DNA of 63,966 nucleotides, the filler included, from Candidatus Babelota bacterium (lineage in GTDB: Bacteria; JAGOBX01), in NCBI GenBank assembly GCA_017999075.1. It is 10 parts of 10 records of this genome, joined end to end, with 100 filler letters (N's around TTAATTAATTAA, not from the genome) between each part and the next. Parts side by side here need not be neighbours in the genome. Positions count along the whole stretch, not along the records: positions 52,147 to 58,515 come from JAGOBX010000215.1; 9 more parts are not named here. One strand, 5' to 3'. Below, one piece after another: positions 23,401-61,720 of the stretch; positions within the stretch are counted from its first letter, which is position 1, and every line of letters begins with the position of its first letter. A program made the position numbers and the translations under genes. The notes under the pieces are model-generated. The model saw nothing but the letters and a program-made list of their open reading frames with translations, did no database searches and was not told the DNA's origin.

Positions 23401-24677
23401 CTTGTTGCGCTGGTTACCGAACCCCAGTTAGCGCTAAAACTTGTGGTTGTTATAGAATTTGCAGCAGCAGCGGTCGAAGCTGCAGGTAATGTTAATAAAT
23501 TTTGCGAGCCGGAATTTGAACTTGTTCCTCCTGTGTTATATGCGCGGATGCGGTAATAATATGTTGTTCCGGCTGTCAAACCTGTTACACTACGTGAAGT
23601 AACATTGCCGACATCAAGATTATTATAACCGGTAGCATAGCTTGAAAAATCGCTTGCAGTAGAAACATCAAGATAATAGCCGGTCGCGCCGATCGCAGCG
23701 CTCCAATTCGCATTAAAACTTGTTTCTGCAATACTTGAAGCTGCATTTGAAGTAGGAGCATTTGGAACTGTCCAAAACGATACATTAGAACCATAAGCCG
23801 TTCCTTGAGTATTTGTGGCATACGCGCGGACATAATACAAAGTTCCGGCTGTTAATCCTGTTAATGAGGAAGTGAACGCGCCTGTCGAACCTTTGGCTCC
23901 TAAAGTAGTATTTGAATTGGCAGTGGTCGGATTTGTAGAAGTATTCCAGCAATGTCCGTGTTGTGTTGGATTAGGCGAGCCGAGAGCAGTAACATTACCA
24001 TTGCCAGTTGCAGTAGTTGACGCTATTGAACTGACTGCTTGAGTGGTTACAGTAGGAACAATCGGTCCTGATGCGCCTATTGTTATTGATTGATTAAGAG
24101 TAGATTCATATGCCCACTCCTGAATTGAAATCAATGCGTATGTAAAATATCCTGGCGTGCCGCCGTCATAATCTGTCTGATAGTTGTATTTGACCCAGCC
24201 ATAATAATAATTTCCACTACCTGCGTCAAAACGGATACCTTGATAACTATTTGATCCTGACTGACTCTGAGGTCCTGCATATCTTGTCGGATTCCAGGAT
24301 AAAACATTGGCATTTATCGTCCAGTTTGAACCGGACGAAACTACATCGCCATAATTACCGTTACATACATGATTTGACATTATTGCGCCGAGATATGTTC
24401 TATGCGAAGCGTCATTACCTGCAGTTAATTGCTGTGAAATATTTGTTGTTGAATATGTCGGCGAAGTAGTTGTTGATGTTGTCCCGTTTGAATTAAGTAT
24501 AATACCAATATAAGTATGGTCAAGACCGCCGGAGCTGCCGGTTGCATTTATTGGTCCTGAATAATAATTTATTGCTCCGAAAGAAATTGTTGAATTTAAA
24601 ATTAAATTCAGAAGTAAAAAAATAATTATAAAAAAATAATTATAAAAATATGAAAAATTAAATCTTACGATTTTCAT
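20460..24677 (-). CDS. Large secreted/surface protein: FN3 repeats, NosD/CASH right-handed beta-helix, FN3/Ig-like domains and a C-terminal triple repeat
   Basis: Signal peptide; repeated GLTAGTTYYYRVRAYN FN3 units; Asn-rich GIYLxxSxxNTIxxN beta-helix repeats; three WTD...IRKxHxDELR repeats at the C-terminus. Confidence 0.85.
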   Translation of the reverse strand: MKIVRFNFSYFYNYFFIIIFLLLNLILNSTISFGAINYYSGPINATGSSGGLDHTYIGIILNSNGTTSTTTSPTYSTTNISQQLTAGNDASHRTYLGAIMSNHVCNGNYGDVVSSGSNWTINANVLSWNPTRYAGPQSQSGSNSYQGIRFDAGSGNYYYGWVKYNYQTDYDGGTPGYFTYALISIQEWAYESTLNQSITIGASGPIVPTVTTQAVSSIASTTATGNGNVTALGSPNPTQHGHCWNTSTNPTTANSNTTLGAKGSTGAFTSSLTGLTAGTLYYVRAYATNTQGTAYGSNVSFWTVPNAPTSNAASSIAETSFNANWSAAIGATGYYLDVSTASDFSSYATGYNNLDVGNVTSRSVTGLTAGTTYYYRIRAYNTGGTSSNSGSQNLLTLPAASTAAAANSITTTSFSANWGSVTSATSYRLDVSIASDFSSFVTGYNNLDVGNVTTYSVTGLTAGTTYYYRVRAINTTGTGSNSNTVTTYTLPSPPTAAAATNINTGSLTANWGTTTGATGYRLDFSTDAGFGSFVGSYNNLDVGNVTTYSVTGLTTYTVYYYRVRAYNSSGTGANSNIISDTTLYNGPVFYVNDASTANDSFTSNIGNDNLNMGNQLYPFRTITQALLRAYSGCTIYVDAGTYAETVVITNNWTSLIGADSATTIIDPAGDSTATTLYGIYANGLANLRIANLRIFDCYYGIYFNNSDTSVIENIKIEYCGKNGGAGAGIYLASGSCSNTISNCYVFKNYYGIYLNNSPYNILSGNSVISNPFYGIYAYNGSSFNYFSNNRSDSNNTGIYTYQNSDTNTFVSNSVNYTQGHGIRLDSNNGCNVLTNNISNYNNNHGISVNGSNNIASNNTANYNTWAGFNFSASSNNIFETNTASNNLQNGFQFSNASNNIFKSNVSKSNSQTGFYLSNNSNNNYFTGNLIIGNNEKGFYLDNVSSNYFTQNNIKNNTNYQIYLTNSSSGDTFTKNNIQTSITNPNYSVYNNVNNTFDFRYNYWNTTDSASISAKISVISGSVLWSPFRTAEIDTAANADTVAPAAPSFIDADTSVLKKVTLRWTKPAADEDGTGLTGLTGYRIYRASAAQVRANGDTDNWEAFLIHTTENTQDTEYVDSGYTSTGIYYYRIVAFDSHQIPVAGGYRFENRTWYSASFMVYALYNTKPETPILLTPVNLPAPYTDFENYGRTLNLRPNLIWQCPADADSNALHFLIYVDSGYGNVLLANSTTDTRGFYYYKSGSYDTFSASGADSTAYGNTVYFNPQVNLNDSVYRWTVVAYDSDLYSDTSTSRYFKIGGRVWTDTQLTTGQSLIRKIHIDELRDEINFARKLRGLSAFSWTDPVITASQTLIRKTHIDELRSAEEQTATAAKAQTPVWTDSNITSGETLIRKIHFDELRQKLSDF

Positions 24678-39449: not shown

Positions 39450-41312
39450 TCATCCAATAGGACATTTTCCTTTTATGAATTCGAAAATAGGACGAAATAT
39501 TTCGAAATATTTTGATTCAACTGTGGGAACAATATTTTGAGCAAAATTGACTTTTTGCTTATCACTAATAAATTTTATAAAATTATCTGTTCGAGTTATA
39601 TCTTCAATAAAATAATTCTCTAATCCTTGAACTCCATAAAATAACAATTCTATCGTTAATAAAGATTTGCCGCCGTATGTTCCTCCAGTATTACTATTAA
39701 TTACCTGTTTAGCAATCAATGAATTAGAAGGAACAGGTAATAACATTGAGTAGGAATTATAATTTTTATATTTTTTTGTTAAACATTTATATGGATCGCT
39801 TTGAATATCATCTCCTAATTGATTCCAATCGTTATACGCTTCATCAAAATCGAAAATAGAAAAAAATATTCTATCACGATAATTTTGATATAAGTCTGTA
39901 TCCTTCATCAGATTTCGTAAAAAATTTTTTGAAAATGCGTTTTGTATCTCGAATTTTCTTTTTTCCAAAGGATAAAGCTTGTTCCATGCGGTTTCAAATA
40001 TCATTTCATCAGAAACTCCTTCAGTAAACAAAATCGGCTGTGTTGTCTTTTTCAAGATTTTGTTAATGCACTTTATGATTTCATTTTCTGAATATGTCAT
40101 TAGACCGGCGGAGAGTGAAGAAATAATATCTTTTTTGTTTGCTGCGCCTGCTTCTGCAGCATAATTGCGTAATTCGAAATTTACTAATCGTTCCTGTTCT
40201 AAAGCTGCGATAGTTGAAGGGCTGTGAGTAGTTAACAATACATGATTTTTTCGCCGCGCCGGTTCGGAAATCATATTGGTTTGCTTAAGGAATTCAAATT
40301 GCCATTCCGGATGTAAGAATGAATCAGGTTCGTCCATTAGCGTCAGACAATTTCTATCCTGAAATGATTCTAATAATGAATATAAATAAATTGATTGGAA
40401 CTGACCATCGCTGAAATAATTAATGTCTTGCTGTTGATCATTTTGCAGAGTTACATTAAATTTGATGTCATCGATAATATCAATAATCTTAATTTCATTA
40501 AATAATTCTATTAGTTTATCAACAGAATCGGATTGAAATTCTTTTTTGAATTTTTTTATGCTTATAAAATATTTGTAATATGGTTTATTTACATTGGATA
40601 TATAACCGCTTAGTCGTAATTCGGGAACATCGCAAGTTGATAATCGCCGAAGGAATTCTCTTGCCTGTCCCTCTATTCCCCAAAAAAGAGTTTTATCATC
40701 AGCGCGATCAATTTTAAAAGTGCGCCTAACTATATACGGACGTTTTAATGTGATGATAAATTCTTGCTCAACATTTTGAATCCCAAGTTTTTCTTTAATA
40801 CCTTTAGCAATATTTTCATCAAAAGGTTGTGTAAGAAATATGGTTATAAGTAATTTTTTATATGCCCTGTCAAAATACATAAATCTATTGAAATCAACAT
40901 TTTTTCCGCCGCGAAAAAACCGTTTAATCATTGCCTGAAATTTTGAATTTGAATAATTCACATTTTCATTATGTCCGGAATAATAGATGAGTATGTTATC
41001 AGGCAGCGGTGTATCCGAGATACGTTTTCTCGCTGTTCCGTTAATTTTAAGAATATTATTTTTCCATTCGATTTCAGTAGATGCATTATTAATTTCAAAT
41101 TTAATTGTATATTCAAAACTAATAATCGGCCGAGCCCTTCTATTATTAAACTCATATAAATGCCGAAAAATCTCAATTAATGCTTCAAATAAATTTGATT
41201 TGCCTGTTCCATTTTTTCCGACAAAAACATCGATAAAACTATTTCCATCAAAATTTAAATTGAACTCTTTTAGATTTTTGTATCGACTTATATAAATTGT
41301 TTTTAATCTCAT
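39450..41312 (-). CDS. ABC/SMC-type ATPase fused to a TOPRIM-like domain (OLD-like), last gene of the type I RM operon
   Basis: YKNL, Walker A GKNGTGKS, signature FSDGQ, Walker B LMDEPD, H-loop TTHSP; C-terminal ILFTEGVSD and FDFD TOPRIM acidic motifs; ATGA overlap with hsdS. Confidence 0.8.
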   Translation of the reverse strand: MRLKTIYISRYKNLKEFNLNFDGNSFIDVFVGKNGTGKSNLFEALIEIFRHLYEFNNRRARPIISFEYTIKFEINNASTEIEWKNNILKINGTARKRISDTPLPDNILIYYSGHNENVNYSNSKFQAMIKRFFRGGKNVDFNRFMYFDRAYKKLLITIFLTQPFDENIAKGIKEKLGIQNVEQEFIITLKRPYIVRRTFKIDRADDKTLFWGIEGQAREFLRRLSTCDVPELRLSGYISNVNKPYYKYFISIKKFKKEFQSDSVDKLIELFNEIKIIDIIDDIKFNVTLQNDQQQDINYFSDGQFQSIYLYSLLESFQDRNCLTLMDEPDSFLHPEWQFEFLKQTNMISEPARRKNHVLLTTHSPSTIAALEQERLVNFELRNYAAEAGAANKKDIISSLSAGLMTYSENEIIKCINKILKKTTQPILFTEGVSDEMIFETAWNKLYPLEKRKFEIQNAFSKNFLRNLMKDTDLYQNYRDRIFFSIFDFDEAYNDWNQLGDDIQSDPYKCLTKKYKNYNSYSMLLPVPSNSLIAKQVINSNTGGTYGGKSLLTIELLFYGVQGLENYFIEDITRTDNFIKFISDKQKVNFAQNIVPTVESKYFEIFRPIFEFIKGKCPIG

Positions 41313-43024
41313 TTGTTTTGTATTTGCGCTAAAACAGCGTCGAATATTTTGATTTTTTTTTCTTCGCTTGATTTTATTTGTTTATCAAGCGTATCGCAAA
41401 GAGTCATAAGCCGCTCGATTTTGGTTACTATACGTTTTTGCTCGGGAAGAGGCGGAAGTGGAAATAAATAATTTCTTAAAAATCCTAGTGAAACAAAACT
41501 TTGTACTGCCCCAGAAGAGATTGCTTTCATTTTTTTTTGCGTATAAAAAAAATAATAGTAAACAAATTTTGTATTTGGCGTATTATCTCGATAATATTTA
41601 AAAAGAGCAATATTTTTTATTGAAAATTCATCATTGGTATTTACAATAACCGGATTTCCAATACTACCTATCATTGCAAAAAGAATATCACCTTTTTCAA
41701 CTTTAGATCGTTCTATTGTTTTTAAATGATCCTCTTTTGAAATAAATTTTATATCATCAAAACTAAGTTTACCTGTATATAAATTTTTACTTGTAATAAG
41801 CGGGTAACCGACTTGTACATATTTGGGAGTATCATGAGTTCCATCTCTAACATCTAAAGCATCGTTTAATCTTACCCATTCCCAGCCTTTTGGCAATTCG
41901 TATGGAATTTCATTTGGTTTAATTGGCGGCAGCGGTTTAGGTTCTTTAATTTTGCCTTCTTTAATCAGACGCTTTTTTTCTGATTCAATTTCTTTTAAGA
42001 GTTCGGATGCCGGCGGGTCATTTGGGTTCTGCGGCACAAGTTTGCCTTGCATTGCAATTTGGAGTATTGCTTTTTTCAATTCCAAAATATTTTCCGAAAT
42101 AGAATATAATTTTGAAAATTGCTTAGTAATAAATTGCCAGGATTTATTAAATTCATTTGGCTGTTTTGAATTTAAAAGCCGATTTAACGCAGAAGTATGA
42201 ACTGCTAATTGTTTTTGATTGCGTTCATTTTTCTGTTTTTCTAATGTATCACATAATGCCATTAGTTGATCAATTTTTGAAACGATACGTTTCTGCTCGG
42301 TGAAGGATGGAAAAGGAATTAAGAATTTAGCAATATTTGCCATACTTAAATTTGCTCGAGCATTATCAACTTGTTTAGAAAACATATATGATAGGCAAAT
42401 AGAACTATTTAAAAAATATAACAAATAATTTAAATCTGTATATTTGCCAATATATATCAACCTAATTAAACAAACTGCTTGATTTATATTTGCAATTTCA
42501 TCTAAATCGTAATATGCCACTCGACCAATAGAAGCGCCAACAATATTCATTAATATATCGAATTTTTGTAATATTGATCTCGGTTCTATTTCATTAAATT
42601 TGTATTCGACATATTTTTTATTATTAAATTTAAGTTTAAAATTATCTACATTTTCACTTGTTATAAATAAAATCCCATTTGATGAATCTGTATAATTTAT
42701 TCCTTGCCAATTTGGCGATGAACCTTTAGTAATTAAAGCAGAAATCTCCCCCAATCTCACCCACACCCAATTCTCCGGTAATTCATACGGTATTTCCTCA
42801 TTCTTTATCTGCGGCAGCGGTTCCTGTTTTTTGATTTTTCCTTCTTTTAGTAATCTTGATTTTTCAGCTTCGATTTCTTTTAATAGTTCTTTGGCAGGCT
42901 GGTCATTTTTATTTTGCGGCGCGAGTTTACCTTTCATAGCGAGCGATAAAATCAGCCCGCGCAGTTTTTTTATGCCGTCAGGCGTTTCAAGGGCTATATC
43001 AAAACAGCGCTGTAATGAATCCAT
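41309..43024 (-). CDS. hsdS: Type I restriction-modification specificity subunit
   Basis: Two EIPYELPxxWxWVRL-TRD-PxPxxxEQKRIV repeats and conserved LAMKGKL/IAMQGKLVPQ segments. Confidence 0.95.
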   Translation of the reverse strand: MDSLQRCFDIALETPDGIKKLRGLILSLAMKGKLAPQNKNDQPAKELLKEIEAEKSRLLKEGKIKKQEPLPQIKNEEIPYELPENWVWVRLGEISALITKGSSPNWQGINYTDSSNGILFITSENVDNFKLKFNNKKYVEYKFNEIEPRSILQKFDILMNIVGASIGRVAYYDLDEIANINQAVCLIRLIYIGKYTDLNYLLYFLNSSICLSYMFSKQVDNARANLSMANIAKFLIPFPSFTEQKRIVSKIDQLMALCDTLEKQKNERNQKQLAVHTSALNRLLNSKQPNEFNKSWQFITKQFSKLYSISENILELKKAILQIAMQGKLVPQNPNDPPASELLKEIESEKKRLIKEGKIKEPKPLPPIKPNEIPYELPKGWEWVRLNDALDVRDGTHDTPKYVQVGYPLITSKNLYTGKLSFDDIKFISKEDHLKTIERSKVEKGDILFAMIGSIGNPVIVNTNDEFSIKNIALFKYYRDNTPNTKFVYYYFFYTQKKMKAISSGAVQSFVSLGFLRNYLFPLPPLPEQKRIVTKIERLMTLCDTLDKQIKSSEEKKIKIFDAVLAQIQNK

Positions 43025-44472
43025 TACTTTCCTCCAAGCGCCTGCATCAATTCTTTTTTCAACAGCTCGCGTGTTGAAATAAGTTGTTTTGATAATTCTT
43101 CATATTCAGCCATCAGCGTTTCAGGGTCGCCGTATTCGATTTCAACAATATGCGGATTTTTGAAATCGAGATTATAATTTTTTTCTTCAATTTCTTTTGC
43201 AGTAACTTTCCAGGCATATTCATTTGTTTTCCGTTTATTCCACCATTTTTTTTCGCGTTCAAATTCTTCAATAGTCAAGGGATTACGGCGCGAATAAGAT
43301 TTATAACCTTCAGGATATGGATGCTCAAAAAACCATACGAATTTAGTAGGTCCGCATTTATCGAAAAATAAAATATTAGTGTTAATGTTTGTATATGGAC
43401 TGAATACGCTTTTCGGCAGACGAACGATTGTATGCAGATTAAAATCCTCAAGCAGTTCCTTTTTCAAAGTTGTTTTCACGCCCTCGCCAAACAGAAAACC
43501 GTCAGGCAGGACAACAGCGGCGCGGCCTGTATCCTGTTTCAATCGATGCATAATAAGCACCATAAATAAATCCGCGGTTTCGCGCGTTCTGTATTTCAAG
43601 GGAAAATTATTTTCAATGCCGTCTTCTTCCATACCGCCAAAAGGCGGATTTGTAATCACAATATCAACCCTGTCCTTTGGTCCGTAATCTTTGAGCGGTC
43701 TGCTCAATGTATTATCGTGTTGAATATTATTTGGCACATCAATTCCGTGAAGCATCATATTTGTAACTGCAAGCATATGCGGCAGCGGCTTTTTTTCAAC
43801 GCCAAAAATTGCAGCGGTTAGAATATCGTTGTCATTTCCTGTTTTAATCTGTTTTTTCAAATGTTCAATTGTATTTGTTAAAAAACCGCCGGTTCCGCAG
43901 GCAGGGTCAAGCACAGATTCGCCTAATTGCGGGTTAATGATATCAACCATAAATTGCGTGACTGCGCGCGGTGTATAGTATTCTCCGGCATTGCCGGCAG
44001 ACTGCAGGTCAGCGAGTATTTTTTCATAAATATCATTGAAAAGATGACGGTCATCTGAAGAATTAAAATCAAGATCATTCTGGATTGTATTTATAACCTG
44101 CCTGAGCAGAATCCCTGATTTCATATAATTATATGCGTCTTCAAATATACTGCCTACAACTTTACCCTGCGCCGATACTCCGGCTGAAGTTGCCAGTCTT
44201 TTTAATGCTGGAAAAAGATCGTTATTGACAAAATCAATCAGTTCATCTCCAGTCATACCTTCAGCATTTGCAGCCCAATTTGTCCATTGAAACCGCGATT
44301 GCAGCGGCGATTTATAATTATTGACAGTAATCTTCCATTCTTTTTCTTTATCATCGAATATTTTTAAAAACAAAAGCCAGACCATCTGGCTTATACGCTG
44401 GGCGTCGCCGTCAACGCCGACATCCTTTCGCATTATATCCTGAATAGTTTTAATCAATGTGTTAATTGGCAT
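43024..44472 (-). CDS. hsdM: Type I restriction-modification m6A methyltransferase subunit
   Basis: IQDIMRKDVGVDGDAQR, GEYYTPR, DPACGTGG and TNPPFG. Confidence 0.96.
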   Translation of the reverse strand: MPINTLIKTIQDIMRKDVGVDGDAQRISQMVWLLFLKIFDDKEKEWKITVNNYKSPLQSRFQWTNWAANAEGMTGDELIDFVNNDLFPALKRLATSAGVSAQGKVVGSIFEDAYNYMKSGILLRQVINTIQNDLDFNSSDDRHLFNDIYEKILADLQSAGNAGEYYTPRAVTQFMVDIINPQLGESVLDPACGTGGFLTNTIEHLKKQIKTGNDNDILTAAIFGVEKKPLPHMLAVTNMMLHGIDVPNNIQHDNTLSRPLKDYGPKDRVDIVITNPPFGGMEEDGIENNFPLKYRTRETADLFMVLIMHRLKQDTGRAAVVLPDGFLFGEGVKTTLKKELLEDFNLHTIVRLPKSVFSPYTNINTNILFFDKCGPTKFVWFFEHPYPEGYKSYSRRNPLTIEEFEREKKWWNKRKTNEYAWKVTAKEIEEKNYNLDFKNPHIVEIEYGDPETLMAEYEELSKQLISTRELLKKELMQALGGK

Positions 44473-44497
44473 TTATTATTCCCCGTTTTTTTTGAAA

Positions 44498-45564
44498 TTA
44501 TGCGCTGTATAGCGCTTTTTCCAAATCTAAAATTGCCTGATTATAGTTATCCAGACCGCCAAAATTTTTTATTATTTCAATAGGAGTTCCGAAGCCGGTA
44601 AATGGAGTAATCGTTAATATTTTGGTTTCTTCAATATGCTCAATTCCTTCGTCGGCATATTTATCAAGCAGCGCATCCAATACTTTCCGCGCAGGTTCGC
44701 TGTATTTAGTGAAATAATTTTTTTTCTTAACATTTTCAGCGCGTTCTTTACGCGTCAAAGGCGGCATATCCCAGACAATATGGCAGATAATATCAAAAGG
44801 GTCAAGAATTTTCCCGATTTCTTCTGATAATGCTTCAAAGAAAACGCCTTGATTGGCAAGTTCTTCTATTATCGCCCGCTTTTTCTCTGTATTATTCCAT
44901 CTTGTTAAAAAATCATTAAGCGTAGAATATTCTTTGTTAAGCGTTTTCTTAGTGTAATCTTTTAGCGATTCTGTTATCAATCTTCCGTTTGCATCAAAAT
45001 ATTGAACGCGCTCGGAAACCACAGAAACCTCAACATTATTAACATAATATTTTCTGATTTTATTTTCAGATTCAAAAGGATTTTCATTCGTAAAATTATT
45101 TTCCTGAATTCCGGTTTCAGTTTGATTGTTATTATCTTCAGGATTTATATTTTCAGAATTATTGTTTTGATTGTTTTGATTATCAATATTATTCAAATCA
45201 GTTTCGTCCGGCGGCACAGGCGATTCGCCTTGTTTTGGAACATATATCATAACAGGGGCGCCGTCAAAGTCAGGGTCTGCAAATAATTCAGTGGCTTTTT
45301 TAAAATCAATTATAGTAAAATAAAATTTATTGTAATCTTCATTAATTCTTGTGCCTCTGCCGATTATTTGTTTGAATTCAGTCATTGATTGAATCCGCTG
45401 GTCAAGCACTATCAATTTACAGGTTTGCGCATCTACACCGGTAGTCATCAATTTTGAAGTAGTCGCAATAACAGGGTAGCGCGATTCAGGAAAAATAAAA
45501 TTATCGAGCTCAATTTTACCTTCTTCATTATCGCCGGTAATACGCATAACATATTTTGAATTCT
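44498..45564 (-). CDS. hsdR: Type I restriction enzyme R subunit (EcoEI/EcoAI-like C-terminus), 5'-truncated
   Basis: IATTSKLMTTGVDAQTCKLIVLD, SMTEFKQIIGRGTR, FADPDFDG, DPFDIICH and PLTRKERA. Confidence 0.93.
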
Positions 45565-52146: not shown

Positions 52147-52478
52147 GGACACATTTCTACACACGCTCCGCAACTATGACACATATTGGGAAAAAATAAA
52201 ACTTTCCCCATTTTTTTGAAAAAAGCAAAAGAATGGAAATTGCATATTTCAGCGCATTTTCCGCATTTTATACAACGCGATTCATCAATTTGCGGAATCA
52301 TTACTTTTACATCAAATACGTCTTCAATATTTGATTTCAAAAATAGTTCATCATTCGGCGCTTCAACATCGCAATCATATAAAGTTACATCCATTATTTC
52401 GCTTAATATTAATGCAAGGTTAATTGCAACTGTTGTTTTACCTGTGCCGCCTTTACCGCTGGCTATCGCTATTTTCAA
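52147..52478 (-). CDS. MinD/CobQ-like P-loop ATPase with inserted 4Fe-4S ferredoxin (COG1149-like), 3'-truncated
   Basis: IAIASGKGGTGKTT, DCDVEAPN, CIKCGKCAEIC and CHSCGAC; TTG start behind AAGGAG. Confidence 0.9.
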
Positions 52479-52499
52479 TTTTGTCTCCTTAATAATTTT

Positions 52500-52649
52500 G
52501 CCACAAAGTCACCAAGACTCTAAGTTAATTTTTTCCCTTGAATCTTCAAGTCTTCGATGTTATTTTATAAAACCTTTTTTTATTCTATACATTCATTTAA
52601 TATCATATCAATCTTTATTTAATTCTTCGAGCCTTTGCGCCTTCGTGGC
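52500..52649. repeat. Intergenic element bounded by imperfect 25-bp inverted repeats (REP/MITE-like)
   Basis: gccacaaagtcaccaagactctaag (52500-52524) versus cttcgagcctttgcgccttcgtggc (52625-52649), 19 of 25 positions complementary. Confidence 0.6.
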
Positions 52650-52656
52650 TATACAA

Positions 52657-53268
52657 TTATTTTTTTCCGTTTACTATTAGTGTGTCTTGAAAATCAGTTT
52701 TAAGATAATTTACTTTTAAAACTTTTGTATCAATATATTTTGCAATATCTGAAATTTTTGTTGAGTTTTCAGAATGAATTTTTCCTTCTTTTTTATGATT
52801 TTCCTGAATAATAGCAAAACCTTTTTCAGAAAAATCACTGATAATAAACTTCCCTGAAGATTTTAAAATTCTTAATACTTCATCAACAAAAAGAAAAGGA
52901 TTTTCAAGATGATGCAGCATTCCAACCGAAAATATAATATCAAAAGAATCATCTGGGAAAAACATTTTTTCAGCGTCCATCGCTTTTAATTCAACATTTT
53001 TCTCAAGATTATAATATTGTAAATTCATATACGCATATTCTAATTCTTCAGTTGAACTGTCAATTGCTGTAAAATTGAATCCTTGTTTTGCAAGTTCTAT
53101 TGTAAAATAACCCTTGCCTGTGCCTATTTCAAGAATATTTCCTTCAATTGGTTTAGATATACTTATTATTTTCTTACGCTCTTTGATAAAATCCAATCCA
53201 TAATTCTTAAATAAATTCATTCGTTCAATATAAATGTTATGATTATCTTTAATTTTTTTGTTAACCAT
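52657..53268 (-). CDS. Class I SAM-dependent methyltransferase
   Basis: ILEIGTGKG, DAEKMFFPDDSFD, MLHH and VLRILKSSG. Start at ATG 53268 is inferred. Confidence 0.88.
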   Translation of the reverse strand: MVNKKIKDNHNIYIERMNLFKNYGLDFIKERKKIISISKPIEGNILEIGTGKGYFTIELAKQGFNFTAIDSSTEELEYAYMNLQYYNLEKNVELKAMDAEKMFFPDDSFDIIFSVGMLHHLENPFLFVDEVLRILKSSGKFIISDFSEKGFAIIQENHKKEGKIHSENSTKISDIAKYIDTKVLKVNYLKTDFQDTLIVNGKK

Positions 53269-53282
53269 TATATATACCTGTC

Positions 53283-53372
53283 TTAAAATTTTATTGAACA
53301 TTTAGAATGATACGCAATACCCATTCTATCCATTTCAGTATATCTAACAACAATATGTGTCCGTGTTTCCAT
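53283..53372 (-). pseudogene. Truncated YbgC/4HBT-family acyl-CoA thioesterase remnant (29 aa)
   Basis: METRTHIVVRYTEMDRMGIAYHSKCSIKF* matches the family N-terminal motif VRYxETDxMGxVYHxNY and then stops. Confidence 0.65.
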
Positions 53373-53556
53373 CGACGATCATCTCTTTTTTTAATCATAA
53401 TTGACTTTTTATATTATTTTAGTAACATACTGCTAATGGGGCGATTAGACTCGGAGAAAAAAATTGAATATTAAATATTCAATCGCCGTTTTCCTTTGGG
53501 ACTAACCGCCTTTAAAAAAATAAACCAATTTAAAAATCCGCTGAATTCAAAAAAAT

Positions 53557-53913
53557 TTATTTATCAGCTTTTTCAGATTCGAGTTTTTCCAACCGCTTGG
53601 TTACTGCTTCTAAAGATTGTTTAAGAAACTCCGCTTCACTTTTCAAATAATTCTTTTCAGTGTCAGCTTTTTGAATTCCATACGAATTTTCAAAATTCTG
53701 CATTCCTGCTAATCTTTGACGGCCATTTCCATTAAAATTTCTGAAACCCCTGCCAGCGCCAGCTCCGCCTCTGCCGCGGCGGCAACCAAAAATTCTTTTT
53801 TCAGATGTAATAAAATTCATAGAATTTTCATCGACAACACCAGAACAAAAACCAAATCCTCTGCCAGTCATTGGGCCTGCGCCCATCGGACCAGTCCCAT
53901 CTCTGTAAGCCAT
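53557..53913 (-). CDS. DUF5320 family protein
   Basis: MAYRDGTGPMGAGPMTGRGFGFC, Gly/Arg-rich middle and C-terminal coiled coil; GGAGGTG RBS. Confidence 0.88.
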   Translation of the reverse strand: MAYRDGTGPMGAGPMTGRGFGFCSGVVDENSMNFITSEKRIFGCRRGRGGAGAGRGFRNFNGNGRQRLAGMQNFENSYGIQKADTEKNYLKSEAEFLKQSLEAVTKRLEKLESEKADK

Positions 53914-53951
53914 TTTATTCACCTCCTTTTCGCTAAAATTTAATATTCATT

Positions 53952-53968
53952 TTGATAATCATTGTAAT
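53952..53968. promoter_or_regulatory. Possible second Fur box upstream of the DUF5320 gene
   Basis: TTGATAATCATTGTAA resembles the TGATAATnATTATCA 7-1-7 consensus. Confidence 0.5.
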
Positions 53969-54018
53969 GCTTATTAACTTGTAAAAAAACACCTTTTTCT
54001 AATAGTTCACATTTTTTG

Positions 54019-54492
54019 TCACTGTTTTTCTCTTTTTATTCTGCATTTCTCACATAATCCCTGAAATTGAATTAAATGACTCATTATTTTAAAATTATGT
54101 TTTTCGGATAATTCTTTTTCAACTTTTTTCAGCAACTGTATTTCTTCATCAATAAAATCATTGTAGTTTATTATAAGTCCGCATTTACAACAAATCAGAT
54201 GATGATGATGATCTTTGCTTTCTGTTTCAAATGCAAGTTCATATCTTGATTTGCCATCGCCAATATCAAATTTATTCAGAATACCGTTTTGTACCATAAG
54301 TTCTAGAGTTCTATAAACAGTTGTTAAACCAATATCCTGTGACTTGTTTTTTAATGCGAAATAAATATCTTCTACAGTCAAATGTTTACAATTTTTTGAA
54401 AGATATTCTAAAATCATTTCGCGCGGTTTTGTCATTTTGCATCCGCAGTTTTTCAGCATTCCGCGCCACCCTAAATGTTTTTTGCATCCCAT
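54019..54492 (-). CDS. Fur family transcriptional regulator
   Basis: MTKPREMIL, IGLTTVYRTL, HHHHLICCKCG and FQGLCEKC. Confidence 0.93.
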   Translation of the reverse strand: MGCKKHLGWRGMLKNCGCKMTKPREMILEYLSKNCKHLTVEDIYFALKNKSQDIGLTTVYRTLELMVQNGILNKFDIGDGKSRYELAFETESKDHHHHLICCKCGLIINYNDFIDEEIQLLKKVEKELSEKHNFKIMSHLIQFQGLCEKCRIKREKQ

Positions 54493-54508: not shown

Positions 54509-54561
54509 AATTGAAAATCATTTTCAATTAATAATATACTAATAAAATTCTGTTTTGTCAA
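54509..54561 (-). promoter_or_regulatory. Sigma70 promoter with overlapping Fur-box-like palindrome (autoregulation)
   Basis: TTGACA(54561-54556)-17-TATATT(54538-54533), then the perfect palindrome AATTGAAAAT-C-ATTTTCAATT at 54509-54529. Confidence 0.8.
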
Positions 54562-54633: not shown

Positions 54634-55869
54634 TTACAAAAAATCAAGAGAATCAGCACTGGCATTGTTTTTGGTATCGTTATTATTTCCTGAATTCTGT
54701 GCAGAAATATTTATGTCCTTGCAGCGTTGGGCAGTAAGTTTTTTTTCTTTTTCAAGAGGAATCAAGAGATCAAGGAGTTTTAATTCATCGCCGCTTGCAG
54801 AACTCATATACGCCCATTTTACAGCGCGGGTTACAGCTACAAATAATAAACGCTTCTGATACTCAATATCAGGAACCTTTTCGGTAAAACTTTTTTCATA
54901 TAAAAACGGCATTAAAACCGTATCAAAAGATAATCCCTTAACGCTGTGATATGATAGGATTTTAATTCTGTTTCCGCTGAAATCTATATCCTTGCCGGAT
55001 TCTACAGGAAATCCTTCTTTCTGTAAAAGTGTTTTCAATTCGTCAATCATAGAATTTCGAAGAATGATTACCCCTATTTTTTCGCCTTTTGTTAATCTTA
55101 TTTTTAAAATTGATTTCAACCGTTCCAATTCATCGGCGTAATCCTTGGCAATATACAGCAGAGGCAATTCCTTTTCTGCCTGCGGAATTCTGACCTGATT
55201 AAGATATTGTGTTTTTTCCATCTGGTCATCTATTAGTTCAGCAGCAAGAGATGCAATATACGGACAGCATCGGTATGCTTCAAGCAAGGATATGTTTGAA
55301 CGCCGTAACCCAAGCTTATCGAGTATCTCCTGTTCATTCATACCTGTATCGAAAATCTGCTGTTTATAATCCATACATACTGTAATATGCTTGGCAATTT
55401 TTGTAAACAATGAAAATGCGTGAGTATCCAAGTCCTGCCCCTCGTCAACTAATACAGCATCATATATATTCTTAATATTATTGCCTTGAATTGATTCTGA
55501 AACTGCTTTTCTTATAGCAGCGAAATCAGGACAGTTTTCGCCTTCCCTAATCGGAAGATTCGGCGAAATATAACGCAAATAATTAGAATAGCACCACGAA
55601 TCAAAAGTTGTAACGCAGTTCAGCGGTAAATCAAGTAATTCAAGCGCTGACTTGATATAAAACTTTAATGTGTTAGTGAAAACAAAAATATGAAGCCTTT
55701 TCCTTGAAATATTGTATGCGTCAATAAGATGTCTTGCCCGATGAAGCAGAATCTGCGTCTTCCCTGAACCCGGCGGTCCTAATATAACGCGATGTGTGTT
55801 CATAGGCATTTCTATTGCACGTATCTGTTCGTTCGATAATTCATTTCGCGGCAGCAGCCATACGCTCAT
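54634..55869 (-). CDS. Compact superfamily I (UvrD-like) helicase
   Basis: Q motif LSNEQ, GPPGSGKT, VFTNTL, TTFDSW, VLVDEGQD, DYKQQIF, EAYR, HSVKGLSFD and LFVAVTRA; only 411 aa. Confidence 0.88.
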   Translation of the reverse strand: MSVWLLPRNELSNEQIRAIEMPMNTHRVILGPPGSGKTQILLHRARHLIDAYNISRKRLHIFVFTNTLKFYIKSALELLDLPLNCVTTFDSWCYSNYLRYISPNLPIREGENCPDFAAIRKAVSESIQGNNIKNIYDAVLVDEGQDLDTHAFSLFTKIAKHITVCMDYKQQIFDTGMNEQEILDKLGLRRSNISLLEAYRCCPYIASLAAELIDDQMEKTQYLNQVRIPQAEKELPLLYIAKDYADELERLKSILKIRLTKGEKIGVIILRNSMIDELKTLLQKEGFPVESGKDIDFSGNRIKILSYHSVKGLSFDTVLMPFLYEKSFTEKVPDIEYQKRLLFVAVTRAVKWAYMSSASGDELKLLDLLIPLEKEKKLTAQRCKDINISAQNSGNNNDTKNNASADSLDFL

Positions 55870-55870
55870 A

Positions 55871-58270
55871 TCATTTTTCCTTATTTTTCATTGCCGGCAG
55901 TTTACCATATTCAATGTTCATTTTATCATTTGCCGCAGTATTTCGTCTTATAAGTTCAATATTTACCTTTTCAATTTCTGCTGTATTGCCTGCCATTGAA
56001 AGGGCTATTTTATACCAGCCGAGCTCCCAATTGCTCTGCAATGGAATTTCAGAAAATGTTTCAAGTGCTTTCTGCAAATATTTATCTTTATTTGAAATGC
56101 GCGATGCGTTTTTAGATTCAAGCATAGCAATATATGTGTAATATGCCGGCTGCGGGTCTTTATCAATAACTTGATACATTATATCCATTGCTTCATTAAT
56201 TTTGTTCTGCTTCTCTTTTGATAATGCAAGATTGAATAACGGGCCAAGCCAGTCTGAAAATTTTGCCGCTTCTCTATAATATTTTTCTTCATTTCTGTAA
56301 TCGCCCAGTTCGCCTGAAATAATCCCCATTGTATTAAGCATACTGACGTCAGGATTGCTTAATCTGCGTAACGCCTGGCGATAGTATTCAATAGATTTTT
56401 CTTTCTGGCCTAAATCCCTGTATAATTCAGCAATTTCAATTATTTTATCTGCAATTTTATTTTTTTGAAATTTATTAGAACGCAACACTTCTTCAAGTTC
56501 CATAATTTTTATGCGTTTTTTATTGGGATTTACAATATTGGTCAGCGGATTTTCAATTGATAAAACAAATTCTTGTTTTTCAAATCCATTATCTATTTTT
56601 AAATTCATTTCCAATGCCTGATTTTCATTATATCTGTATTCAAGAAAAATCGGTTCACCTTGAACAATCGGCACATCAATAGGCCATTTGGCTGAAATTA
56701 ATTTTCTATTGTCGGAAGTTGCAGCAATTTCAATCAGTAATTCGAAATTATCAATAAGATTTGTTTCCGGCACCGCAAGATTTGAATATTTAATAAATGA
56801 ATTATCCTGCGGATACGGCAGAGGAGCATTTTGCGGTATCAGTTCTGCAAGCCCTGATTCTGTCCGGATTGATATTCCATCAAAGCAAACCGGTTTTATA
56901 AGACTTTCTCCGAATAATTTTAAAAACAACGAATGATATGCCGCGCCGCGTGCTACTGCTGTCTGTATATCATCGCTGTTTGCATAAGTAAGAATTTGAG
57001 AGTTTATAAAATGTTTTTTTACTGCATCAACAATCTGTGGTATAAGACTGCTGCCTCCCACAAGCAGGCAGTAATCAATTTTTGACGAGTTCAGTCCGCA
57101 TCTGTCGAGCGCATCCGTTATAGGAGCAAAAATAGAACAGGACATTCTGTATTCAGTTTCTTTGACATACAAAAAATCAGTATCTAAAAACTGCTCCAAT
57201 ACTTTCTCAAATTCTTCTGCAGACATTTTAGGAGAAGTCAAAGTTTTCTGTTCACCGAACAATTTACAGGTATAAACTCCAGGCTGAACTTTAATAATTT
57301 TTGATTTATCTGAATCATTATATTTATTAAATCCAATCAGCCGGGATATTTCTCTGCAAAGCCCTATTTTCAATTGTTCTGCAACATTCATAAAAGCAGG
57401 ACCAATAATATTTTTCTTCTCATTGAATGTTAAACCGTATGAATTCAAATTATTTTCTATCAAGAATTGCGGCAGCAGAATTTCATATAAAATCGCAGCA
57501 TCAATATCTCCTCCGCCAAGCCTGTGATATCTCGAAACAGATAACGGCATTATTTTTATATGTTTGTCTTCGGTTTCTTTCTGTATCTGGAAAACTGCAA
57601 CATCGCAGGTGCCTCCGCCGAAATCAAAGACAAGCAGATTTGATTTCCCTCTGATTTGCGAAAAAAGTTTATTATCATATCCTATAATATAGTCAAGAAA
57701 TGCCGCGACAGGTTCGTCAAGCAGATTGCCGCCCATTGTTTTTATCCCTGCAATTTCTGCGGCTTTTAAAGTATCCCGACGCTGCGCCAACTGAAATGAA
57801 GCGGGGACTGTTATGACTGTATTATTAATATTATGGCTGGACTGTTTTGTTTCCTGAAGCATATATTTTAAAAGTTTGCCGGCAATTTCCGCAGGAGATT
57901 TAAAACCTTCCTGAGCCATATGATAAGTTCGGTTTGTACCGATTTCGTTTTTACATTCATAGAATAAATTTTTATTCTGAACAATACCATATTCTGATGA
58001 TAAAGCCCTTAAACGTTTTGCGCCTTCGCCTATGAAAATTTTATTCTGATATTCGGTAATCATTGACGGCAATAATATGTTGCTATACATTCCTTCAAGT
58101 GTTTCCTGCTGTATTTCAACGCATTCTGCAGCAGGAATTTCGGACATTCCATTTTTCCAGCAGATTTCAGCGACTGTTGAATTAGTTGTTCCCAAATCAA
58201 TTCCAACAACGAGCAACTCCTTAATATCAGTTTTAATTTTGTTTTTATCGAATAATTCAAATATGTTCAT
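55871..58270 (-). CDS. Atypical Hsp70-family protein with C-terminal TPR repeats
   Basis: GIDLGTTNS, ITVPASF...QRRDTLKAA, LLDEPVAA, VFDFGGGTCD, LGGGDID and LVGGSSLIP; C-terminal TPR-like helices (IAELYRDLGQKEKSIEYYRQAL, MGIISGELGDYRNEEKYYREA). Start at ATG 58270 is inferred. Confidence 0.88.
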   Translation of the reverse strand: MNIFELFDKNKIKTDIKELLVVGIDLGTTNSTVAEICWKNGMSEIPAAECVEIQQETLEGMYSNILLPSMITEYQNKIFIGEGAKRLRALSSEYGIVQNKNLFYECKNEIGTNRTYHMAQEGFKSPAEIAGKLLKYMLQETKQSSHNINNTVITVPASFQLAQRRDTLKAAEIAGIKTMGGNLLDEPVAAFLDYIIGYDNKLFSQIRGKSNLLVFDFGGGTCDVAVFQIQKETEDKHIKIMPLSVSRYHRLGGGDIDAAILYEILLPQFLIENNLNSYGLTFNEKKNIIGPAFMNVAEQLKIGLCREISRLIGFNKYNDSDKSKIIKVQPGVYTCKLFGEQKTLTSPKMSAEEFEKVLEQFLDTDFLYVKETEYRMSCSIFAPITDALDRCGLNSSKIDYCLLVGGSSLIPQIVDAVKKHFINSQILTYANSDDIQTAVARGAAYHSLFLKLFGESLIKPVCFDGISIRTESGLAELIPQNAPLPYPQDNSFIKYSNLAVPETNLIDNFELLIEIAATSDNRKLISAKWPIDVPIVQGEPIFLEYRYNENQALEMNLKIDNGFEKQEFVLSIENPLTNIVNPNKKRIKIMELEEVLRSNKFQKNKIADKIIEIAELYRDLGQKEKSIEYYRQALRRLSNPDVSMLNTMGIISGELGDYRNEEKYYREAAKFSDWLGPLFNLALSKEKQNKINEAMDIMYQVIDKDPQPAYYTYIAMLESKNASRISNKDKYLQKALETFSEIPLQSNWELGWYKIALSMAGNTAEIEKVNIELIRRNTAANDKMNIEYGKLPAMKNKEK

Positions 58271-58324
58271 AATATGGCATCCTGTTTTCAAATATTTTTT
58301 ATTAATTCCGAATAAAAAATAAAT

Positions 58325-58377
58325 GTTTTGTGAAGTTTTATAAAACATTAATAATGTTTATTAAAACTTCTAAAAAC
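58325..58377. promoter_or_regulatory. Long imperfect palindrome upstream of the Hsp70-TPR gene (operator candidate)
   Basis: gaagttttataaaacatta-a-taatgtttattaaaacttc (58332-58370), with weaker complementary flanks. Confidence 0.55.
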
Positions 58378-58735
58378 CCGAAAAATGCTGTGAATTTTGA
58401 ATGCAATTTTCAAGTTAAATAATTATAAATGAAATTCAGGAAATGTCTAACAGAAATTAAAGTTTGACCAAAATACATATTTTAAAAATTAAAAATACTT
58501 TTGACATAAAAAAAANNNNNNNNNNNNNNNNNNNNNNNNNNNNNNNNNNNNNNNNNNNNTTAATTAATTAANNNNNNNNNNNNNNNNNNNNNNNNNNNNN
58601 NNNNNNNNNNNNNNNCTTCTATGCTGTACCCGCTGATTTTGTTTTTCATAATATTTATTCCTGCAGGATCAACCTCCAGAGAATATAAATATTTTATTAT
58701 ATTTTCTTCTAAATTAAATTTTATAATTTTACTTA

Positions 58736-59347: not shown

Positions 59348-61720
59348 TTATTCTCTTTTTTTATCGTTAACTTTTGTAACAAGCCCATCCAGAATTTTTG
59401 CAGCTTGTTCTTCTTTAGTGGGCTCTATAAACAAAATTTTTGTTCTACGGTTTTTTGCTCTGCCTTCTGCAGTGGCATTATCTCCGATCGGGTCCGAATC
59501 GCCTTTTCCTATAGCAGCAACAATTGACGAATTTATATTACATTCGTTTATTAAAAATTGTTTAACTGTATCAGCCCGTTTTTGAGATAATGTTTTATTA
59601 GCTTCAATTGCCCCTAAACTGTCAGTATATCCTATAATTTCAATTCGCGGTTGTTTTTTTTCGTATTTTTTGGGATCAGACTCGATTTTTTCTTTTATTA
59701 TTTTTCCGATTTTTAATAATGCCGATTTTGCATCTTCGGTTAAAATTGATTCAAGGGAATTGAACATCATTCCTGCTATTGTAAATGTAGAAATGTTATC
59801 TGCAGTCATCATTCCTATAGGAATTCCATTGCTTCTTTCTGATTGCAGCGCATTTACTGCTTCAATGTTTTCTCCTCTTATTAGCGCTCTTACTTCGTCT
59901 CCTTCGATAGTTTCTTTTAAAAGAAGTATCTCGGCTATTTTATCTAAGGTTTCTCTGTTTTCCCTTAATATTTTTTCTGCTAAGGAATATTGTTCGAATA
60001 CAATTCTTTTGATTTCGGAATCAAGATCTATTCCTGTATTTTCACTGTGATCTTTTTGATAGGATAATTCGCGCCCGAGAAACGGGTGTTCTTCGCGTTT
60101 GCCGAATTGTACAGGACCTATTTTATCACTCATCCCCCATTCGCAAACCATTTTACGCGCAAGATGAGTTGCGCGTTCTATATCATTTGCGGCTCCTGTT
60201 GTTGGAGCTGAAAATACAAGGTTTTCTGCAGCTCTGCCTCCCATAAAAACAGCTATTTTCCCAAGTAAAATTTCTTTTGAATGACTGTGTTTTTCTTCTT
60301 CAGGAAGCTGAATGGTTGCGCCGAGCGCTCTTCCTCGCGGGATAATAGTTATTTTATGTAAAGGATCAGTTCCAGGTATCATTTCTGCAACAAGCGCGTG
60401 ACCCGCTTCATGATAAGCAGTTTCTCTTTTTTCTTTTTCTTTAATAACAAGACTTCTGCGTGCAGGGCCCATTAAAACTTTGTCTTTTGCATCTTCAAGT
60501 TCTGCCATTGTTACTACATCGAGATTTTTTCTTGCGGCAAGCAAGGCGGCTTCATTCATAAGATTTTCCAAATCAGCTCCTGAAAAACCCGGACATCCTC
60601 TGGCTATAACTTCAAGATCAATGTGTATATCAAGAGGAATTTTTTTTGAATGAACTTTCAATATACCTACTCTGCCTTTTAAATCAGGATTATCAACTAT
60701 GACATTTCTGTCAAATCTTCCCGGACGCAGCAAAGCCGGATCTAATACGTCAGGTCTGTTTGTGGCAGCGATTAAAATGACTCCTTCGTTTGTTTCAAAT
60801 CCATCCATTTCGACGAGCAGTGCGTTTAATGTCTGCTCTCTTTCGTCGTGGCCTCCGCCTAATCCTGCTCCGCGCTGCCTTCCTACTGCATCAATTTCAT
60901 CGATGAATATTATGCAAGGAGCGTGTTTTTTCCCCTGCTCAAATAAATCTCGAACCCTGCTTGCACCTACGCCAACAAACATTTCTACAAAATCAGAACC
61001 TGATATGCTTAAAAACGGAACTCCTGCTTCGCCTGCTACAGCGCGGGCAAGCAATGTTTTTCCTGTTCCTGGAGGGCCCACAACCAAAACTCCTTTTGGA
61101 ATTCTGCCTCCCAATCTCTGAAACTTTTTAGGATCTTTTAGAAAATCTATTATTTCTTCAAGTTCTTTTTTAGCTTCTTCACATCCGGCTACATCTGAAA
61201 ATGTTACCTTGGGAAGATTGCTTATAAAAAGTTTAGCTCTGCTTTTTCCGAATGAGAATGCGCCTTTTCCGCCGCCTATGATATTTCTGTAAAATATGAA
61301 CCACAGAAATAATATAAATAAGATCATAGGACCCCAGCTGAATAGAAAATTACTCCAAAAACCGGCTTCTTCCTGATGCTGATATTTTACAATTTTAATA
61401 TTTTTTTTTGATAAATCTTCAATAAATTTATAATCAATTTGAGGTATAACGCATTTGAATTTGTGGAAACCTGTTATGTCTTTGTATTCTCCAACAAGAA
61501 TTTTTTCCTGAACCGTGACTTCTGTTATAGTTATTTTGTTTGAATCGTCAAGTTTGTTTTCTTGTGATAAATCGTGTTTTCGGACAAGATCTACAAATTC
61601 GGAATAACTTAATTCCGTTATTTTTTTCCCTTCAGGCTGTTGATTAAAAGATAAAAATAAGGCTGTTATAACTAATCCCAGAAGTAACCAAAACGCAAGG
61701 TTTTTTGATGAATCTTTCAT
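59348..61720 (-). CDS. ftsH: ATP-dependent zinc metalloprotease FtsH with fused C-terminal OmpA-like domain
   Basis: Two N-terminal TM helices, [15 protein letters not shown] pore loop, [25 protein letters not shown] and HEAGH; C-terminal IEIIGYTD...NKTLSQKRA...GKG...P...N...GRAKNRR. Confidence 0.96.

Follow-up and report, generated by a model that had tools for sequence, protein, structure and literature searches.

We describe a two-gene module in a window of 63,966 nucleotides from the genome of a Candidatus Babelota bacterium (GCA_017999075.1). It encodes an Hsp70-like protein that ends in tetratricopeptide repeats (TPRs), hereafter Hsp70-TPR, and a compact superfamily 1 (SF1) helicase. 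The two almost certainly constitute a conserved, co-functioning unit, and direct binding of the helicase by the Hsp70-TPR is likely. In the reading that we favour, with a probability of roughly 0.4, the Hsp70-TPR is a nucleotide-gated switch that controls the helicase, most likely in antiphage (conflict) defence. That the module has a defence role of any kind is, on indirect grounds, a somewhat better than even prospect; given defence, control running from the Hsp70-TPR to the helicase is a direction we would back with a little more assurance. A first-pass annotation of this DNA had proposed that the Hsp70-TPR senses a foreign or misfolded protein and licenses the helicase. Gene linkage, a modelled complex and the absence of a matching named system support part of this proposal; defence itself and the sense-then-act direction are still what we infer.

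The two genes recur together. Database searches returned 1405 proteins at E 1e-20 for the Hsp70-TPR, ordinary Hsp70s included, and 752 at 1e-10 for the helicase; the counts of linkage and distance given here rest on the 120 matches listed for each protein. Nearly all of these are full-length and 44–52% identical to the query (excepting one relative of 76–79% for each protein, and the helicase itself), and their lengths are highly uniform at about 800 amino acids (aa) for the Hsp70-TPR and 405 aa for the helicase. Their source names cover Bacillota, Desulfobacterota, Nitrospirota, Acidobacteriota, Omnitrophota, Armatimonadota, Chloroflexota, Planctomycetota and Pseudomonadota. At least 21 of the 119 non-self helicase matches share the size of their longest contig with one of the 120 Hsp70-TPR matches, against a chance level of 0.52 on average and 5 at most over 400 offsets; this proxy is a lower bound and shows co-location, with no adjacency implied. 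Across 22 pairs (these 21 and the pair in the window), the evolutionary distances of the two proteins correlate (Spearman 0.81, permutation p 0.0005; 0.78 without a near-identical pair), and both partners have the same nearest neighbour in 14 of the 22.

Distant relatives preserve the arrangement. On 2 of 72,556 plasmids, from Antarctobacter and Persicobacter, a distant Hsp70-TPR is followed directly by a homologous compact helicase, in the same order and at 25–28% identity. A search of the plasmids with P0356 recovered the same two and one with P0343 gave no match; tblastn with the helicase at 1e-15 gave no useful match, and the plasmid helicases used as queries found only themselves. The Antarctobacter protein reads HEPN-like – Hsp70 – TPR; its N-terminal part contains an RxxxxH motif and matches Swt1-like HEPN at E 0.0015, short of the curated cut-off, and its locus is flanked by insertion sequences (IS). 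In Persicobacter, the surroundings of the pair include a WYL gene, fragments of ABC-ATPases and cas1. Two of 150 representatives are natural Hsp70-helicase fusions, again in the same order: P0388 joins the nucleotide-binding domain (NBD) to the whole helicase, without TPR region or helicase tail (n=1), while P0273 joins the full Hsp70-TPR to the 2A half of the helicase and keeps both TPRs and tail (n=1). A generic Hsp70-pattern scan of genome contigs yielded 80 loci at 24–33% identity, of which none was family-like and none (0/80) had a helicase homologue. With co-located pairs, plasmid pairs and fusions in hand, the expectation that the genes would be linked elsewhere has been borne out.

The Hsp70-TPR has the fold and catalytic residues of an Hsp70. 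Pfam matches HSP70 (E 5.7e-33; 114 bits against a cut-off of 20.6) as well as TPR_8 and TPR_6, and the structure model (pLDDT 87.5) comprises an NBD, the beta sandwich of a substrate-binding domain (SBD-beta) and a TPR array, with DnaK proteins as the best Foldseek matches. Residues D25, T28, K107, E186, D216 and T221 are invariant in all 92 full-length sequences aligned (the query and 91 of the 150 representatives, those of 760–830 aa). The first-pass statement that all Hsp70 nucleotide-binding motifs are present holds for the six catalytic residues and is slightly overstated elsewhere: relative to the DnaK profile, GGSTRMP on the adenine side has become GGSSLIP, GGDD has become GGGD, and the hydrophobic linker LLIDV has become LIKPV. 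Pfam, the model and the comparison with the DnaK profile agree with its description of insertions in the ATPase domain, a divergent substrate-binding region and TPRs in place of the lid. Measured against a profile of 50 DnaK/HscA proteins, a hairpin of residues 50–66 is inserted around the ‘EG’ loop of lobe IB; G60 and R86 align to this loop and to the arginine of the AKRQ segment of DnaK lobe IB.

Several comparisons separate this protein from the housekeeping chaperone, as had been argued from its gene neighbourhood. It is about 23% identical to DnaK, and its scores for the NCBIfam DnaK/HscA models are 95–120 bits against cut-offs of 620–1019 (the DnaK equivalogs, 112–114 bits against 648 and 822). 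In a quick tree, 23 of the 42 rows, those of the family, group on a single branch (SH-aLRT 99; the plasmid proteins drew long-branch warnings), and 18 DnaK/HscA rows and an Hsp70 from a Priestia plasmid fall outside it. Because the canonical linker and the lid are lost, a general DnaJ/GrpE-driven foldase is unlikely; judged from its sequence and the known Hsp70 mechanism, the Hsp70-TPR is probably ATPase-competent but outside the DnaJ/GrpE cycle. One family member, P0297, ends in a response-regulator receiver domain; it may be a signalling variant or a product of read-through.

The helicase matches the Pfam families UvrD-helicase, UvrD_C and AAA_19. Its fold is of the UvrD type (TM-score 0.75 to UvrD; 0.63–0.76 to UvrD/PcrA proteins against 0.52–0.57 to Upf1) and has no insertion. 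Subdomain 1B is reduced and 2B is absent, the alignment to PcrA skipping from about 107 to 212 and again from 387 to 557. The helicase has all of motifs Q, I, Ia, II, III, IV, V and VI, and K37, D142, E143, Q170, R200, K311 and R348 occur in each of the 120 matches listed. Motif V has T or S in place of E, and retains its lysine. The early description of a compact, nuclease-free UvrD-like helicase with intact motifs therefore stands, although the W-R pair that PcrA has in motif III is missing. In PADLOC the helicase is matched best by the NERD+UvrD profile C3a187 (E 4.6e-24, spanning only profile positions 210–544 of 559, its helicase part), GajB, a reverse transcriptase (RT)-associated helicase and Nhi; HelD is also among the matches (NCBIfam, E 3.8e-11; PDB 6wvk, E 2.4e-18). 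Residues 387–411 are disordered in the model (pLDDT <50). The protein ends in a conserved way, a feature absent from the first-pass annotation: 104 of the 120 listed matches terminate in D or E followed by two hydrophobic residues, 106 have D at position −3, and both distant plasmid helicases end in a similar acidic-hydrophobic tail. The only longer helicase form recovered, P0241, was not accepted as a fusion; its extension starts where the tail should end and resembles read-through.

Multimer modelling, which had been suggested as a check on the pair, supports a complex. For Hsp70-TPR residues 17–793 with helicase residues 192–411, the interface score ipSAE is 0.68 (0.70, 0.66 and 0.68 in three runs), and the best control reaches 0.00. 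The same mark is attained by 116 of 157 solved complexes and by 2 of 215 mismatched pairs, a calibration that is approximate here, where our own alignments were used. At least 61% of contacts agree between runs, and the partners have pLDDT of at least 77. The most confident contacts join the Hsp70 hairpin (residues 57–64) to helicase residues 232–237 and 379–381, and R86 to residues 257–260. Lobe IIB residues 283–346 also touch helicase subdomain 2A, which is therefore predicted to bridge the nucleotide cleft. Helicase tail residues 408–411 and Hsp70-TPR residues 593–632, at the start of the TPR array, both appear in the lists of confident interface residues, suggesting that the tail probably touches the helix there. 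The interface is conserved on both sides. Among 121 Hsp70-TPR sequences, T57, G60 and E593 are found in 100%, and H117, P330, G331 and R597 in at least 93%; on the helicase, E232, E234, L237, G286 and Q381 are each kept in 96–118 of 120. We know of no solved complex of an Hsp70 with an SF1 helicase. According to PMC4753570, subdomain IIB is the target of all exchange factors and GrpE wedges into the cleft. The model thus supports docking of the helicase at the exchange-factor face of the Hsp70, and this predicted docking is the new element of the finding.

In the mechanism that we propose, 2A would pack on the hairpin of residues 57–66 and on lobe IIB, across the cleft, as the model and the comparative data suggest, and the acidic-hydrophobic tail probably docks on the helix that opens the TPR array. 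Because this docking site spans the cleft, the ATP or ADP state of the Hsp70 would decide between retention and release of the helicase. The switch would be flipped when the lidless SBD-beta or the TPR groove binds a protein that is unfolded or comes from a phage, a hold-and-release scheme modelled on chaperone sensing in toxin–antitoxin–chaperone (TAC) systems (10.1101/2024.02.24.581848). In the weakest step, the freed motor might act on nucleic acid or nucleoprotein, such as replication forks or transcription complexes, with the invader blocked or the cell arrested as the outcome. In some lineages an effector may be added, as a HEPN-like domain at the N-terminus or as a third gene that varies. 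In the boldest form of this reading, which we hold at much the same odds, the module would be an unnamed antiphage system of several phyla, with an Hsp70 that keeps its catalytic residues and has been turned into an immune switch: the GrpE-side loop would have become a docking hairpin and the lid a TPR sensor gripping the helicase tail, and a phage protein would release the motor. The helicase would then serve its Hsp70 as a dedicated co-chaperone or as cargo. Whether a bacterial Hsp70 can act as a sensing switch for an enzyme is a question that this module makes testable by point mutants, given its hundreds of relatives, intact ATPase sites in both proteins, a modelled interface and a short conserved tail.

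The case for defence is circumstantial and rests on a shift in third-position G+C content (GC3), a patchy taxonomic distribution, the two plasmid loci and one HEPN-like fusion. The synonymous GC3 z-scores of the Hsp70-TPR and helicase genes, +4.0 and +3.4, rank second and third among 35 open reading frames (ORFs), beside hsdM and hsdR, which share the raised GC3. The pair had been described as GC-richer than its neighbours. GC3 bears this out, but total GC (0.347 and 0.374 against an ORF median of 0.314) is matched by ftsH (0.372) and folE (0.357); as a sign of foreign origin we consider total GC weak, since ftsH equals it and GC3 alone stands out. Precedent for a defence role may be seen in the Hsp70-like domains that recur in conflict systems (PMC11090510, PMC7159879, PMC12642450, 10.64898/2026.10.19.760177), including tripartite systems in which an HSP70-like NTPase can replace STAND (10.64898/2026.10.19.760177).

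We compared the module with known systems. Gabija GajB, Nhi/AbiO, NERD+UvrD and the RT-associated helicases share its compact SF1 helicase and provide the best PADLOC matches. GajA is an OLD nuclease, and a nuclease likewise accompanies the NERD and Nhi helicases as a partner or domain. In the module, the gene upstream of the helicase encodes the Hsp70-TPR and not a GajA ATPase-TOPRIM nuclease, and the helicase has no fused nuclease domain of the Nhi or NERD-UvrD kind. DnaK, HscA and HscC share the NBD and SBD-beta folds and the catalytic residues; the module protein differs in scoring far under their cut-offs and in its degenerate linker, its TPRs in place of the lid and its extra hairpin at the GrpE-side loop. 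In composition the module resembles type III CoCoNuT (CnuD/CnuCD, CnuH), in whose predicted defence operon an Hsp70-like NBD and SBD followed by helical repeats occurs with an SF1 helicase and HEPN RNases (PMC11090510). That system is built around the McrB GTPase and McrC, its CnuD is predicted to hydrolyse ATP poorly, and its helicase, of UPF1-like type, carries insertions of an OB-fold and a coiled coil (PMC11090510), whereas the module has a minimal UvrD-type helicase and invariant Hsp70 catalytic residues; neither McrB GTPase nor McrC was found on this contig or at the two plasmid loci. STAND/Avs-like tripartite switches also place TPRs behind an NTPase (10.64898/2026.10.19.760177), an order that the Antarctobacter protein matches with its HEPN-like domain in front. 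The NTPase of the module, in contrast, is an actin-fold Hsp70 with no STAND AAA+ domain, its constant partner is a separate helicase, and close members lack a fused effector.

Two further resemblances were considered. HigBAC and CmdTAC offer an analogy only. Their chaperone is devoted to its partner, of which it recognises a particular element, and a phage protein can compete for it; but it is of the ATP-independent SecB type, works with a toxin and an antitoxin, and has no homology to the module (10.1101/2024.02.24.581848). In the EACC1-protease-DnaK-like fusions, a lidless DnaK-like domain is proposed as the sensor of a defence or stress death module; these are about 50% identical to DnaK, fused to a protease and paired with a pore-forming effector (PMC12642450), and differ in this from an Hsp70 of about 23% identity with TPRs and a helicase partner. 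The pair is undescribed in the open full texts searched, supplementary tables and subscription journals lying outside that scope and a listing in a large defence-prediction screen being possible; the passages found in PMC3710099, PMC8195603, PMC6514570, PMC13692203 and PMC12704722 do not concern it. ESM Atlas matches fall only in unnamed Hsp70/TPR and UvrD-like clusters. The claim that no characterised system consists of exactly this pair thus withstood the PADLOC tests and the open literature. The module does not fit DnaK, Gabija, Nhi/NERD-UvrD or Avs/STAND, and its helicase type sets it apart from type III CoCoNuT. Its parts and their grammar have precedents; what is new is the modelled docking of the helicase on the exchange-factor face.

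A number of observations weigh against a defence switch. The two-gene core carries no nuclease or other effector, Pfam finding no nuclease family in the helicase; an N-terminal extension of more than 60 aa occurs in 0 of 270 closer Hsp70-TPR matches, which leaves one distant protein as the only HEPN-like fusion. Processive unwinding by the helicase is uncertain because of the missing W-R pair in motif III. PADLOC gives no match for the Hsp70-TPR, and the GajB-type matches of the helicase may arise from any SF1 helicase. Variability in the TPR region exceeds that of the NBD only modestly (mean column identity of 0.41 for the TPRs, 0.53 for the NBD) and falls short of hypervariability. The sole chromosomal neighbours seen, those of the fur operon, are of housekeeping type. 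The module is rare on mobile DNA, with the two plasmids above and, at the sensitivities used, none in phages: tblastn of the helicase against 50,697 phages at 1e-6 gave no match, and the Hsp70-TPR gave nine partial DnaK/HscA-like matches, none covering 80%. A blastn search of E. coli genomes also gave no match. Common host ancestry by itself can raise the correlation of pair distances, and the contig-size proxy speaks to co-location alone. Finally, the complex model omits helicase residues 1–191 and is silent on nucleotide state, affinity and the direction of control.

Some of these points would suit a stress or maintenance machine, in which the Hsp70 and a dedicated SF1 ATPase remodel stalled nucleoprotein (by HelD-like recycling or in rescue after protein damage) or couple proteotoxic stress to growth arrest. 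The effector-free core, the uniform lengths, the HelD matches and the scarcity on plasmids and in the phages searched all agree with it; in Myxococcus, heat-stress cell death involves specialised DnaK fusions (PMC10313047), and lidless DnaK-like domains have been suggested as sensors of misfolded proteins (PMC12642450). We nevertheless hold it to be unlikely, if a serious contender, given a GC3 shift resembling that of type I restriction–modification (R-M) genes, the HEPN-like fusion, the IS, WYL and cas surroundings at the only two annotated loci, the scatter over unrelated phyla, and the lack of any recognised CIRCE, CtsR or HAIR motif upstream, judged by eye against the consensus sequences. 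Even in a stress system, a helicase on the exchange-factor face would add a new class to the partners of Hsp70. The same docking position invites a defence system of reversed logic, in which nucleic acid or ATP status is sensed by the helicase, acting as exchange factor, and output falls to the Hsp70-TPR, which would trap a protein of the phage or the host or set off a fused HEPN domain. The absence of 2B and of the motif III W-R pair, the fusion of the HEPN-like domain to the Hsp70 rather than to the helicase, and the frequent use of SF1/SF2 helicases as nucleic acid sensors (10.64898/2026.10.19.760177) point this way, but the catalytic motor residues of the helicase are all invariant, most Hsp70-TPR members lack an enzymatic output domain, and TPR arrays behind an NTPase are usually sensors (10.64898/2026.10.19.760177). 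We rate this arrangement as unlikely, a little more so than the stress machine.

It is improbable, though conceivable, that these two genes form only the conserved regulatory part of a more extensive system. Its effector would be a third gene that varies or a restriction system nearby, and would here have been lost or lie past the contig end, 245 nt upstream. At both plasmid loci an uncharacterised third gene is closely coupled past the helicase (L081:15596-17386 and L082:15510-16880; 596 and 456 aa), and the Hsp70-like protein and SF1 helicase of type III CoCoNuTs sit within bigger operons (PMC11090510). However, the two third genes, which have no convincing Pfam or PADLOC match, are not alignable with each other (mutual best E 0.98), and in the window a promoter-like site stands before the Hsp70-TPR gene and a separately promoted fur after the helicase. 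That a divergent DnaK paralogue merely lies beside an unrelated repair helicase is hardly credible: both folds are common housekeeping ones, but repeated linkage effectively refutes chance; co-location and matching distances oppose it, as do both fusions, both distant plasmid pairs and the modelled complex. A nucleotide-gated Hsp70-TPR switch acting on the helicase is the reading that we retain.

The window consists of contigs of about 6.4 kb each, joined in order of falling length by nine identical spacers (44 N, a 12-nt palindrome and 44 N), and neighbouring parts are not necessarily linked. ORFs running across spacers are artefacts of joining, and folE, ftsH and lepA were rejected as neighbours of the module since they lie on another contig past a spacer. 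The module is on JAGOBX010000215.1 (52147–58515, 6369 nt). Its minus strand reads 245 nt of non-coding DNA, the Hsp70-TPR gene, exactly one base (as first noted), the helicase gene, fur, a DUF5320 gene, a methyltransferase gene and a cut ParA/4Fe-4S gene. The start codon in Table 1 was chosen because the closest relative, P0001, is likewise 799 aa at 100% coverage; an 825-aa start at 58348 was rejected, as it falls within a palindrome. No dnaJ, grpE or hrcA lies downstream on the contig, in the 245 nt upstream or at the two plasmid loci. Since the contig ends there, the earlier statement that these genes are not adjacent holds for the downstream side and those 245 nt, but not for the remaining upstream side.

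Table 1. Features of the module and of the adjoining fur promoter, in positions of the window
Feature	Position	Strand	Description
Hsp70-TPR gene	55871..58270	-	799 aa, ATG at 58270; NBD – SBD-beta – TPR array; model pLDDT 87.5, DnaK-like fold
Hsp70 nucleotide-binding domain	56906..58219	-	residues ~18-455; catalytic residues invariant, family-specific insertions
Family-specific beta-hairpin	58073..58123	-	residues 50-66; T57 and G60 invariant in close set; core of predicted helicase interface
SBD-beta-like sandwich	56531..56884	-	residues ~463-580; canonical linker degenerate, DnaK lid absent
Helix and TPR array in place of lid	55925..56521	-	residues ~584-782
Minimal UvrD-type SF1 helicase/ATPase gene	54634..55869	-	411 aa; model pLDDT 87.7
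Acidic-hydrophobic C-terminal helicase motif	54637..54660	-	consensus D-x-L-D-L-L at C-terminus, past disordered variable linker
Candidate sigma70-like promoter TAGACA-16-TATAAT	58422..58449	-	11/12; best-scoring site in region
53-bp imperfect palindrome	58325..58377	.	26-nt arms, 85% complementary; operator-like or RNA hairpin
Second AT-rich hairpin beside palindrome	58293..58321	.	11-nt arms; inverted-repeat/fold analysis
fur promoter and palindromic Fur-box-like site	54509..54561	-	belongs to downstream fur operon, outside module

The promoter search found 27 sites against 20.6 expected, hence the status of the site ahead of the Hsp70-TPR gene as a candidate only. The palindrome that had been noticed ahead of the pair is present, and is unique in the window (26-nt arms, at least 22 matches); 0 of 300 local shuffles gave one, and the upstream 245 nt have a fold z-score of −4.0. 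It lies between the candidate promoter and the start codon, where an operator would be expected. As first noted, fur has a promoter of its own, TTGACA-17-TATATT, but no terminator was found between the helicase and fur. The fur run (fur, DUF5320, methyltransferase, ParA/4Fe-4S) occupies 52147–54492 on the minus strand; the palindrome at 54509–54529 ahead of it, a Fur-box-like site, suggests autoregulation.

Other parts of the window hold genes of separate interest. On the minus strand, a type I R-M-like operon (39450–45547; partial hsdR, hsdM and hsdS) precedes an ABC/AAA_21 ATPase gene that belongs to another contig. FtsH (59348–61720, minus strand) has an OmpA-family domain (residues 652–758, E 1.4e-16) fused past the peptidase domain; in canonical FtsH the C-terminal end past the peptidase is cytoplasmic, making this fusion odd. 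Outside the window, the Priestia megaterium plasmid pNCT2_2 (L083:6618-13475) carries an MBL/beta-CASP nuclease-like gene, an unknown gene, a short Hsp70 and a HEAT-repeat protein near HAD/DprA and HNH genes, and looks like another candidate defence system; its Hsp70 (583 aa, with MBL/beta-CASP and HEAT neighbours and no helicase) lies outside the family clade and was set aside as a different system. A 2085-aa open frame fills a whole contig (32740–38997, plus strand) and, judged from its first residues only, resembles a fragment of a non-ribosomal peptide synthetase. The minus-strand frame at 20460–24677 encodes a 1405-aa fn3/beta-helix protein of surface type, whose GC3 is also raised.

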